From positions 1-8,451 of IMG/VR virus record IMGVR_UViG_2548876857_000001: DNA of 8,451 nucleotides; one strand, 5' to 3'. Shown here piece after piece: positions 6,882 to 8,451 of the stretch. This stretch comes from a virus. Taxonomy: Duplodnaviria; Heunggongvirae; Uroviricota; Caudoviricetes. Every line of letters starts with the position of its first letter. The first letter of the stretch is position 1. The notes beneath the pieces are model-generated. The model was not told the origin of the DNA and did not search any database. It saw only the letters and a list, made by a program, of their open reading frames with translations. A program made the position numbers and the translations under genes.

Positions 6882-7345
6882 GCAGAGTAACCGCGATTAT
6901 CTCCGCTCTGGTTATCTGCATCATCGTCTGCCTGTCGTGGGCGGTCAATCATTACCGTGATAACGCCATCGCCTACAAAGAACAGCGTGATAAAAAAGTC
7001 AGTGAGCTGAAGCAGGCGACCGCCACCATCGCTGACATGCAGCAGCGTCAGCGTGATGTTGCTGCGATCGATGCAAAATACACGAAGGAGTTAGCCGATG
7101 CGAAAACTGAAAATGAAACTCTGCGCGCTGATGTTGCCGCTGGTCGTAAGCGCCTGCGGGTCAATGCCAGTTGCTCCGCAGCCGTGCGTGAAGCCACCGG
7201 ACCCACCAGCATGGATAATGCAACCAGCCCCCGACTGGCAGACACCGCTGAACGGGATTATTTCACCCTCAGAGAACGGTTGATGACGATGCAGAAGCAA
7301 CTGGAAGGGGCGCAGGAATATATCCGCACCCAGCGCATTAAGTAG
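6878..7345 (+). CDS. Rz: Rz i-spanin (inner-membrane spanin subunit)
   Basis: ATG 6878 overlaps the endolysin stop (ATGA). N-terminal TM segment ([18 protein letters not shown]) followed by a charged coiled-coil-like periplasmic domain; position after R. Confidence 0.8.
7098..7283 (+). CDS. Rz1: Rz1 o-spanin (outer-membrane lipoprotein), embedded in Rz in the +1 frame
   Basis: Entirely within Rz in a different frame. Product [22 protein letters not shown]... has a lipobox (VVSAC) and Pro-rich mature region ([22 protein letters not shown]) resembling lambda Rz1 as recalled. Confidence 0.8.
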
Positions 7346-7366
7346 CTGGAGAAAAAACACGAATCT

Positions 7367-7729
7367 GTGGTTTTTACTGAGCGCGGTGTACACGGTGGAA
7401 CATATGGCGGGAAGTTTGTTGCTTATGATTATGCAGCATGGCTAAACCCCGGATTTAAATATGCAGCCTATAAAGTCCTGGATGACTACTTCACCGGAGA
7501 ACTTCAGCATCGCAACAGCTTAAGTGCGCAGCTCAATATGAAGTGTCATGAGTTTGATCAGAAAAAAGATATGGCGAGCTTCTGTGGACAAGGGCTGGCG
7601 GCATGGCGCTATACGAAGCCAGTGTTGGTCGCTGAGATTAACTCCCGGGCTAACCAGCTGCAGATAACGATCCCCGGGCTGTCCGGTATTTGCCGGTATG
7701 AAATTACCGGAAGGCGCGGTCGTTACTGA
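7367..7729 (+). CDS. Hypothetical protein; possibly a 5'-truncated KilA-N-like remnant
   Basis: 120-aa ORF with GTG start and weak RBS. N-terminus GGTYGGKFVAYDYAAWLNPGFKYAAYKV resembles the C-terminal conserved block of KilA-N domains (G.W.HP.LA..FA.WL.P.F) without the preceding half of the domain. Assignment is tentative. Confidence 0.35.
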   Translation: MVFTERGVHGGTYGGKFVAYDYAAWLNPGFKYAAYKVLDDYFTGELQHRNSLSAQLNMKCHEFDQKKDMASFCGQGLAAWRYTKPVLVAEINSRANQLQITIPGLSGICRYEITGRRGRY

Positions 7730-7784
7730 GTAAGAGCAGGCATTACAGCAGCCCTTCACTGAGGGGCTGCGATAATGTGAGGAA

Positions 7785-7823
7785 TAAAAAACCGGCAGGG
7801 GAAATCCATTGAAGATTTGCCGG
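7785..7823 (-). terminator. Minus-strand intrinsic terminator (orphan; no clear minus-strand gene upstream)
   Basis: On the + strand: ATAAAAAA (7785-7790), then stem CCGGCA (7792-7797) / TGCCGG (7818-7823) with possible inner pairing AAATC/GATTT. On the minus strand this reads as a GC stem followed by TTTTTTAT. Confidence 0.5.
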
Positions 7824-7989
7824 TGGCAAAAGATGGCCATGCTTTTAACCTTAGTAGCAGAGCTACGGAGTTCAACAACGACCGTCGCCGTTATCTTGCT
7901 GAAAGGCGTTTCAATGATTTTCATCAATTTATTCATCAGCAATGGTGATAATCACTCTCATTTTGGCGGGTCCTTCCGGTGGGGTGGCC

Positions 7990-8180
7990 TGCCACGGGGC
8001 GGGAGCGTCGCGGAAAAAGGCTAGTTTTTGAAATTTCATTCGTCATCACCACCACTGTAATAGATTGATATTACAGTGGTTTTATTTTTATGGTGTCGAT
8101 TTTGATTGTTTTTTGTTCATCACTAACACCGTTTGCCTAAAGTTGTTCGCAAGATGCATGTTTAAAACATTCTGGAGCGG
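7990..8180. other. cos site region (cosN-like core followed by a cosB-like region) upstream of the small terminase gene
   Basis: ACGGGGCGGGAGCGTCGCGG (about 7994-8013) parallels the lambda cosN core ACG|GGGCGGCGACCT|CGCGG as recalled; downstream TTTTTGAAATTT and TTCGTCAT blocks also resemble the lambda left end. Lies directly upstream of a Nu1-family gene. Confidence 0.55.
8052..8079. repeat. Perfect 11-bp inverted repeat with 6-bp spacer inside the cosB-like region
   Basis: CCACTGTAATA (8052-8062), GATTGA, TATTACAGTGG (8069-8079), followed by TTTTATTTTTAT (8080-8091). Seen directly in sequence. Confidence 0.7.
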
Positions 8181-8182
8181 GT

Positions 8183-8451
8183 ATGGATCGAGAGTTAAAA
8201 AATCTGACGCTGAATATCAGTCAACTGGCGGCACTGTCAGGTGTACATCGCCAGACTGCTGCGGCAAGGCTGCAAAATCTACCCGTTGCAGGGGGGCATG
8301 AAAGCAACCTCAAGCTTTATCGGGTGGTTGATATTGTGTCGGCATTTCTGGCATTACCACCGCCGGTTGCAGAAGGCGAAATGGACGCGCATGAGCGCAA
8401 AGCCTGGTATCAGTCTGAACGTGAGCGTCTTAAGTTCGAACAGGAAACGGC
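8183..8451 (+). CDS. Terminase small subunit (Nu1 family), 5' partial; continues beyond window end
   Basis: ATG 8183 preceded by GGAGCGGG. N-terminal HTH-like segment (LNISQLAALSGVHRQTAAARLQN) followed by GG...LYRVVDIV aligns in pattern with lambda Nu1 (QLADIFGASIRTIQNWQ...GGGKGNEVLYDSAAVIKWY) as recalled. Location immediately after the cos-like region. Confidence 0.65.
   Translation, partial: MDRELKNLTLNISQLAALSGVHRQTAAARLQNLPVAGGHESNLKLYRVVDIVSAFLALPPPVAEGEMDAHERKAWYQSERERLKFEQET

Follow-up and report, generated by a model that had tools for sequence, protein, structure and literature searches.

The stretch of DNA discussed here (the window) comprises positions 1 to 8,451 of the IMG/VR virus record IMGVR_UViG_2548876857_000001, and represents the late region of a lambdoid phage of E. 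coli; our subject is a stem-loop, hairpin B, that lies between its lysis genes and cos. Judged from its sequence, hairpin B has the anatomy of a minus-strand intrinsic terminator, namely a G+C-rich stem-loop, a U-tract, an occurrence beyond chance and conservation among relatives. We think it likely that it does terminate transcription and, with much less assurance, we lean towards the view that hairpin and T-run together form the leftward terminator that closes a slot for accessory genes between the lysis cassette and cos, a slot that would be empty in this phage. Hairpin B is an ordinary kind of feature, widely shared and previously unannotated. The interval that holds it (7730-7996) is in four parts, A (7741-7777), B (7783-7824), C (7825-7945) and D (7946-7996), and the features on which the argument turns are these (lengths in nucleotides, nt).

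7783-7824, minus strand: hairpin B with its U-tract, resembling an intrinsic terminator (hairpin 7824 to 7791, T6-A-TT 7791 to 7783)
7848-7875, minus strand: sigma-70-like promoter candidate from a position-weight scan, TTGAAC (7875-7870), 16 nt, TAAGGT (7853-7848)
7786-7843, minus strand: candidate leftward RNA of ~52-58 nt, a GGC-N8-GCC mini-hairpin followed by hairpin B, predicted from the promoter-like site and the terminator

Anatomy of hairpin B and coding content of the interval

The arms of hairpin B are CCGGCA (7792-7797) and TGCCGG (7818-7823), and a further A7791-T7824 pair makes a base stem of 7 base pairs (bp; ACCGGCA/UGCCGGU), above which an inner AAUCU/GGAUU stem contributes five more pairs. 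Right after the stem the minus strand reads TTTTTTATT (7791-7783), with the U-tract UUUUUUAUU abutting it, and the plus strand goes on UGGCAAAAG. The fold is worth -13.5 kcal/mol (z = -2.7, RNAfold). The CCGGCA...TGCCGG hairpin with a minus-strand T-run, picked out in an earlier reading of the bare sequence (the original prediction), is indeed present, and it is enriched over shuffled sequence. For this comparison we used a custom scan that asked for a perfect stem of 6 bp or more including 4 or more G/C, a loop no longer than 24 nt and 6 or more T among the 8 nt that follow. It returned five distinct sites with hairpin and T-run in the window, where 200 dinucleotide shuffles lead one to expect 0.1 hits; sites of the quality of hairpin B are ~50-fold rarer in shuffled sequence, and it is the sole minus-strand site that the scan found in the 8.4-kb window. 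The built-in terminator scan skipped it because its loop limit is 8 nt.

If hairpin B works as this anatomy predicts, a leftward RNA polymerase would transcribe the G+C-rich stem, the hairpin would fold within the exit channel at the moment when the active site holds the weak rU:dA hybrid formed by the U6 tract, and release of the RNA would follow before antisense transcription could reach Rz, R and S. Rightward late transcription should be unaffected, because no U-tract follows the hairpin on the plus strand. Hairpin B would then mark the left border of an accessory-gene slot that runs from the lysis cassette to cos, occupied in relatives by leftward bor, ybcV/p78 and ylcI (lambda, DLP12) or by ynfO/ydfO-like genes (some relatives of this phage); here the slot would be reduced to the terminator unit, a variable spacer of ~100 bp and cosQ/cosN. 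In phage cdtI, which like phi458 is 99.6-99.7% identical to window positions 7340-8190, every gene in the 20 kb rightward of cos lies on the plus strand, and leftward input to the hairpin must therefore be local. Its sole likely source would be the weak promoter-like site ~25 nt upstream, with an RNA of ~55 nt as the product.

The interval holds no credible gene, in line with the original prediction, which had seen no convincing open reading frame (ORF) there and had correctly noted that the sole long minus-strand ORF (7520-7942) passes straight through hairpin B. In none of the homologous prophages does RefSeq place a gene between the ORF at 7367-7729 and the small terminase gene that starts at 8184. 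The 'Orf24' of phi458 (7823-7948, plus strand), a plus-strand ORF of 71 amino acids (aa) that crosses cos (7809-8024) and minus-strand ORFs of 140 and 40 aa were each tried as genes and rejected, their frames being broken by 1-2 nt indels in homologues. Five small ORFs of the interval match nothing in Pfam or NCBIfam, and third-position bias was absent when the homologue alignment was read codon by codon, by eye. Of the accessory genes of lambda the window keeps no sign: tblastn with lambda Bor gave nothing significant (the best E value, 0.12, lies elsewhere in the window), blastn of the interval against the lambda right end matched cosQ alone, and no remnants of p78/p79, ylcI or bor were found in the window. 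That bor is absent was therefore rightly seen; that a bor-like gene had been deleted here, as was also proposed, finds no trace at the DNA or the protein level.

Conservation, genomic contexts and the promoter-like site

Homology searches with the interval (7690-8000) match 404 of 5,426 complete E. coli genomes, and 224 of these matches cover at least 80% of it. The best-conserved part is a terminator unit of ~85 bp, which consists of hairpin B, its T-run and ~50 nt upstream in the minus sense, and the most variable is the spacer up to cosQ. Parts B-D occur together in all homologues aligned, an arrangement that we call Fam1, and it adjoins three families of small terminase (DUF1441, a 'terminase small subunit' of 168-182 aa and the lambda Nu1 type) and is found behind differing lysis cassettes. 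Among 43 unique Fam1 sequences hairpin B is near-invariant, loop included, and region C is a mosaic, well conserved over its left ~50 bp and highly variable over its right ~70 bp except for a box, GGCGTTTCAATGAT.

A second family, Fam2, has the hairpin CCGGCCAAGGATAATCCGCTGAAGATT(C/T)GCCGG directly behind the Rz stop codon, with its A-run overlapping the TAA, and is present in PhiR5_1, vB_EcoS-689R5, 83 IMG/VR contigs and 435 of the 5,426 complete E. coli genomes. The CCGGC/GCCGG base stem is common to every version and recurs in the folds of the homologues, and a minus-strand run of at least 5 T is present in 28 of 28 unique versions; a plus-strand U-tract is absent from every one. The upper stem and loop differ in Fam2 and in the divergent homologue L009, and the DNA on the T-run side is wholly different between versions (GTGAGGAATAAAAAACCGG, CGACGAAAATAAAAAACCGG, CTCAGATAAAAACCGG). 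Every version lies where the lysis region ends downstream and points in the opposite direction to it. No new divergent copies came up when a profile of the terminator unit was run with nhmmer against 2.95 Mb of fetched phage loci, Klebsiella-type contigs included, and a scan of genome contigs with GTTTCAATGAT-N35-60-CGGGTCC returned chance matches only, none like the interval.

What lies upstream of the hairpin in the minus sense defines three contexts. Fam1 has region C and cos only; Fam2-a has a plus-strand gene, the hairpin lying between Rz and that gene; and Fam2-b has ~270 nt followed by intact leftward DUF1398 and DUF3950 genes, which are ydfO/ybcV/lambda p78-like and ynfO/ylcI-like, respectively, and then a lambda-type cos. 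Homology between the window and Fam2-b is limited to the hairpin and ~85 nt upstream, and since the DNA between the unit and cosQ is non-homologous, the arrangement in the window is not a plain deletion of Fam2-b. In Fam2-b contigs the trailer of ~270 nt from the ydfO-like stop codon to the hairpin is itself conserved and non-coding (in locus L265, ~2304-2572 in window orientation), and one block of it, GATTTATTTCTGTGCGCTGTATCGTCGC, resembles window 7882-7897 (ACCGTCGCCGTTATC).

Many Fam1 members carry in addition a cassette of ~130 bp between hairpins A and B, flanked by a 14-bp direct repeat, AAATAAAAAACCGG (locus L005, ~1290-1420, and many IMG/VR loci). Inside it, 130 bp to the left of hairpin B and in tandem with it, is another leftward terminator-like hairpin, and the layout of the cassette, TTGCAT-16-TA(T/A)TGT, ~75 nt and then the terminator, suggests that it may be a second small leftward transcription unit. 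A hydrophobic minus-strand ORF of 37 codons in the cassette (MHNIAFTSIAAIVISMLHQC...) was rejected as a gene, with stops lost, frames shifted and many non-synonymous changes.

Is there a promoter to feed hairpin B? The original prediction had proposed looking for one on the minus strand between 7830 and 7990, where the built-in scan finds none and the best candidate of the position-weight scan is weak (-35 at 7875-7870). This site, TTGAAC-16-TAAGGT, is the top minus-strand candidate in 8000-7824, with 8.9 bits, a score that 12% of random 177-nt windows equal, and its -10 lies ~25 nt upstream of the hairpin. When 16 representative types from both families are aligned in the minus sense, conservation upstream of the hairpin is highest in a block TTGCA(C/T), after which come a diverged spacer of 16-17 nt and then TAnnnT (TAAGGT, TAGGTT, TAAATT, TAGGCT, TAAGCT, TATGCT or TACGGT); homology upstream of the hairpin stops at that -35-like block. 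Of 52 unique upstream sequences, 34 have a best candidate whose -10 stops 22-26 nt short of the hairpin, and in a common Fam2-b variant, in which TAGCAT replaces TTGCAT, a strong TTGACT-16-TAGCAT stands 22 nt further upstream. The promoter-like hexamers thus hold their position across all three genomic contexts, a conserved pattern that is suggestive of a small leftward transcription unit with an RNA of ~55 nt (~7843 to 7786). Whether the site is active we regard as nearly an even question, tipped slightly towards inactivity. The short RNA that was originally proposed to start near cos gains some indirect support from these hexamers as to the RNA but none as to its origin, there being no promoter candidate near cos.

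RNAalifold on 20 sequences of region C, both strands, gave no pair with a compensatory change, a result that is uninformative since the stem bases are invariant. A search of Rfam 15 at E of at most 1 found no match in the interval or in five homologous loci, complementary targets in the cdtI genome amount to chance 10-mers, and a literature search turned up nothing on the terminator unit. An 'anti-terminator' pairing noticed by eye (UUUGCC/GGCAAA) was dropped, the changes in it not being consistently compensatory.

What the terminator unit may be for

Several findings weigh against our preferred explanation, that hairpin B closes an empty accessory-gene slot. A pure insulator has little to insulate in a phage that lacks a leftward gene, and such a role leaves unexplained the ~50 conserved upstream nt that are kept in three contexts. 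In Fam2-b ~270 nt separate the stop codon of the ydfO-like gene from the terminator, so that it need not be the one that serves that operon. Hairpin B itself, bulged by 5 nt, is irregular and moderately stable, and its invariant base stem shows no covariation.

The ~85-bp unit might instead be a dedicated small-RNA gene, in which TTGAAC-16-TAAGGT would start a ~55-nt RNA that ends at the U-tract and has a function of its own, either as a cis-antisense to the untranslated late mRNA between the lysis genes and cos or by trans pairing through the loop AAUCUUCAAUGGAUUUCCCC. We regard this as possible, but on balance doubtful. It fits the retention of the unit in three contexts, of which Fam1 and Fam2-a have no leftward gene upstream, and the way in which both hexamers are kept though their 16-17 nt spacer diverges, with conservation ending at the -35-like block. 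The constant distance from the hairpin of the best position-weight-matrix candidate in 34 of the 52 unique sequences, the strong TTGACT-16-TAGCAT 22 nt upstream in Fam2-b where the TTG is lost, the shared layout of the 130-bp cassette of the long variants (TTGCAT-16-TATTGT, ~75 nt, terminator) and the near-invariant loop within Fam1 all point the same way. The promoter, however, is weak (6.5-8.9 bits) and not significant alone, given that 12% of random windows do as well; there is no covariation, no Rfam family and no in-phage target beyond chance 10-mers; and with sequence diversity so low, invariance may merely mirror recent ancestry. A broader claim, that the ~85-bp unit and the 130-bp cassette are genes for an undescribed family of leftward phage RNAs of 55-80 nt at the lysis/cos junction, which would regulate in antisense or in trans (in lysogens, for instance, the basal expression of late, lysis or terminase genes), is one that we put forward tentatively and think unlikely.

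Could the unit be nothing but a relic, a terminator and flank left behind after leftward accessory genes (ynfO/ydfO-like or similar) were lost, and now functionless? The original prediction had also raised a remnant terminator of a deleted gene, and part of that idea survives, in that relatives carry a homologous terminator ~270 nt downstream of intact leftward ynfO/ydfO-like genes, in a region that is mosaic, with frequent recombination and indels and a cassette that is present or absent between the AAATAAAAAACCGG repeats. What fails is the deletion: with non-homologous DNA between the unit and cosQ, the window does not derive simply from the gene-bearing arrangement, and a useless remnant is hard to square with a unit that is the best-conserved in the interval and is shared by hundreds of genomes, three small-terminase families and several lysis cassettes. 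We consider it improbable. Still less probable, and in our view very unlikely, is that hairpin B is no terminator but serves the rightward late mRNA, either to stabilise a 3' end or as a site of processing behind the lysis genes. The Fam2 hairpin does come immediately behind the Rz stop codon, the plus-strand RNA forms a similar hairpin and the neighbouring hairpin A is clearly tied to plus-strand gene junctions, yet such a role explains neither why the A-run 5' of the hairpin (the U-tract of the minus strand) is strictly conserved in all contexts nor why the minus-sense upstream block is conserved. An element that works as DNA, either an extension of the packaging signal upstream of cosQ or a recombination junction between modules, would suit the fact that Fam1 travels with cosQ/cosN whatever the flanking genes, and recombination breakpoints do cluster at conserved boxes; but Fam2 hairpins are 250 to >1,100 bp from cosQ, lambda packages without a homologue of the unit and the spacer between unit and cosQ is the most variable part of all, which makes this extremely unlikely.

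If hairpin B is a terminator and nothing more, it still explains why the stretch is gene-free, shows the ORFs called in the interval in some records to be spurious and provides an annotation marker for the left edge of the accessory slot beside cos in a large group of E. coli prophages. Were a discrete RNA to be made from the unit, a common prophage-encoded small RNA would be added to the E. coli repertoire, together with a position at which leaky late-gene expression in lysogens could be damped.

Surroundings of the unit and known counterparts

On either side of the terminator unit lie hairpin A, cos and a box between the unit and cos.

7741-7777: hairpin A, a 5 + 8 bp stem-loop (CATTA..GCAGCCCT / GGGGCTGC..TAATG) directly after the stop codon of the 7367-7729 ORF; further copies at ~1503-1540 of locus L257, ~1546-1584 of L258 and ~1503-1540 of L259
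7905-7927: conserved box GGCGTTTCAATGAT (7905-7918) with a small inverted repeat, TGAT-N4-ATCA
7946-7996: left half of cos, TGATAAT..TCTCATTT, with cosQ GGGTCCT at 7968-7974 and left cosN up to the nick at 7996/7997
7997-8008: predicted 12-nt cohesive end GGGCGGGAGCGT, for which lambda has GGGCGGCGACCT; it aligns with lambda-type cos

Hairpin A is a separate, widely distributed element, distinct from hairpin B, with the consensus GGCATTACAGCAG..loop UUCAsUGAG..CUGYGAUAAUG. Phages of E. coli, Salmonella (Fels-1) and Klebsiella carry it, as does phiP27, after various plus-strand genes and before HNH/terminase genes or directly before cosQ. IMG/VR holds 41 unique variants; in 34 variants 98.9% of cells are paired, a value reached by 0 of 500 shuffles, and two pairs show compensatory changes (GC to CG or the reverse, and AU to CG or the reverse). 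There was no Rfam match to it. Hairpin A could serve in the processing or stability of late mRNA or mark a junction between modules and, as a covarying RNA or DNA structure across several enterobacterial genera, it may merit a study of its own.

At the other end, window 7946-7996 aligns with the lambda right end (...TGATAATCATTATCACTTTACGGGTCCTTTCCGG...GGTTACG), and the cdtI record ends on the base at 7996 and begins with that at 7997. The distance from cosQ GGGTCCT to the nick is 22 nt here versus 23 nt in lambda, and with that spacing, within the ~20-25 bp expected, and a G+C-rich cohesive end of 12 nt, the site has every appearance of a lambda-type cos, to which the final ~50 bp of the 'interval' would belong. 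The bounds 7730-7990 first drawn for it hold up, then, as a non-coding stretch but not at the right edge, where cos takes over and the nick falls at 7996/7997.

The box GGCGTTTCAATGAT is invariant across BLAST-derived homologues, the divergent L009 included; within 7905-7927 the right arm (G/A)TCAT is kept and the adjoining bases vary. In its more general form the inverted repeat is TGAT-N4-6-(A/G)TCA. Immediately left of cosQ is a motif, TGATAATCACTCTCATTT (7946-7964), where lambda has GATAATCATTATCAC; motif and box are both conserved and the DNA between them is hypervariable. Readings of TGATAAT and ATGAT..ATCAT as a Fur box or an IHF site were set aside, the by-eye matches being too weak. 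Between cosN and the small-terminase start, at 8051-8090, a 12-bp plus-strand hairpin (ACCACTGTAATA..TATTACAGTGGT) is followed by TTTTATTTTTA; it looks like a rightward terminator within cosB, and its inverted repeat may instead be a terminase-binding site. The T-rich run is kept in Fels-1 and L009, and lambda has an IHF site there.

The wider layout of the window is as follows.

2059-2258: c4-a1b1, isrK and C4 antisense RNA, Rfam matches above the gathering score
5895-6050: tRNA-Asn(GTT) and tRNA-Thr(TGT), between the Q-like region and the holin gene
6169-6384: holin
6384-6881: endolysin
6866-7345: Rz, with Rz1 embedded
7367-7729, plus strand: KilA-N / ORF11CD3 remnant, 5'-truncated, with a GTG start, 120 aa; the final plus-strand ORF ahead of the interval
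from 8184: small terminase gene of the DUF1441 type

The 7367-7729 ORF matches Pfam ORF11CD3 at 4e-12 and only the C-terminal end of the KilA-N profile, its homology with full-length homologues (HK620, Stx phages) runs out at ~7686, and the cdtI record remarks of it that the 'start codon is not identified'; it is probably a pseudogene remnant. The RNAs at 2059-2258 sit upstream of two antirepressor-like ORFs (2311-2991 and 3060-3788), and together these are a P1/P7-type immunity (immI-like) module within a lambdoid late region. The custom scan also picked out two strong plus-strand hairpins, AGGCCTGC..GCAGGCCT at 12-35, followed by a T-rich stretch, and ACCCAGC-TTCG-GCTGGGT at 3010-3027, followed by T5, which are probably rightward terminators that flank early or accessory genes.

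Among known systems, the closest in position is the hairpin that separates Rz from bor in lambda and in DLP12 (GTTGCCCATATCGATGGGCAAC), which likewise lies just downstream of the lysis cassette, faces late transcription and presumably has the job of ending leftward transcription ahead of Rz. It has no sequence similarity to hairpin B, which, unlike it, stands here without a gene in front and is conserved together with ~50 nt upstream. The comparison with lambda cos runs along similar lines: alignment to the right end of lambda covers the last ~50 bp of the interval, whereas the terminator unit and the ~100 bp to its right are absent from lambda, which has ylcI-like, p79 and p78 genes there, and the cosB region and small terminase (DUF1441) of this phage also differ. 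For the candidate RNA there are two precedents. Lambda OOP is an experimentally established leftward antisense RNA of 77 nt, with its own promoter and intrinsic terminator, that overlaps the end of cII; the likeness is that of a tiny leftward unit within a rightward operon, made up of a promoter, a short stem-loop RNA and a terminator, but the RNA considered here is a prediction, is unrelated to OOP in sequence and would lie opposite late mRNA that is not translated. Small RNAs of the DapZ and MicL type come from mRNA 3' ends that have an internal promoter. The Fam2-b unit, in the trailer of a leftward operon and with a promoter-like site just upstream of a shared terminator, has much the same design, whereas the unit in the window has no parent mRNA.

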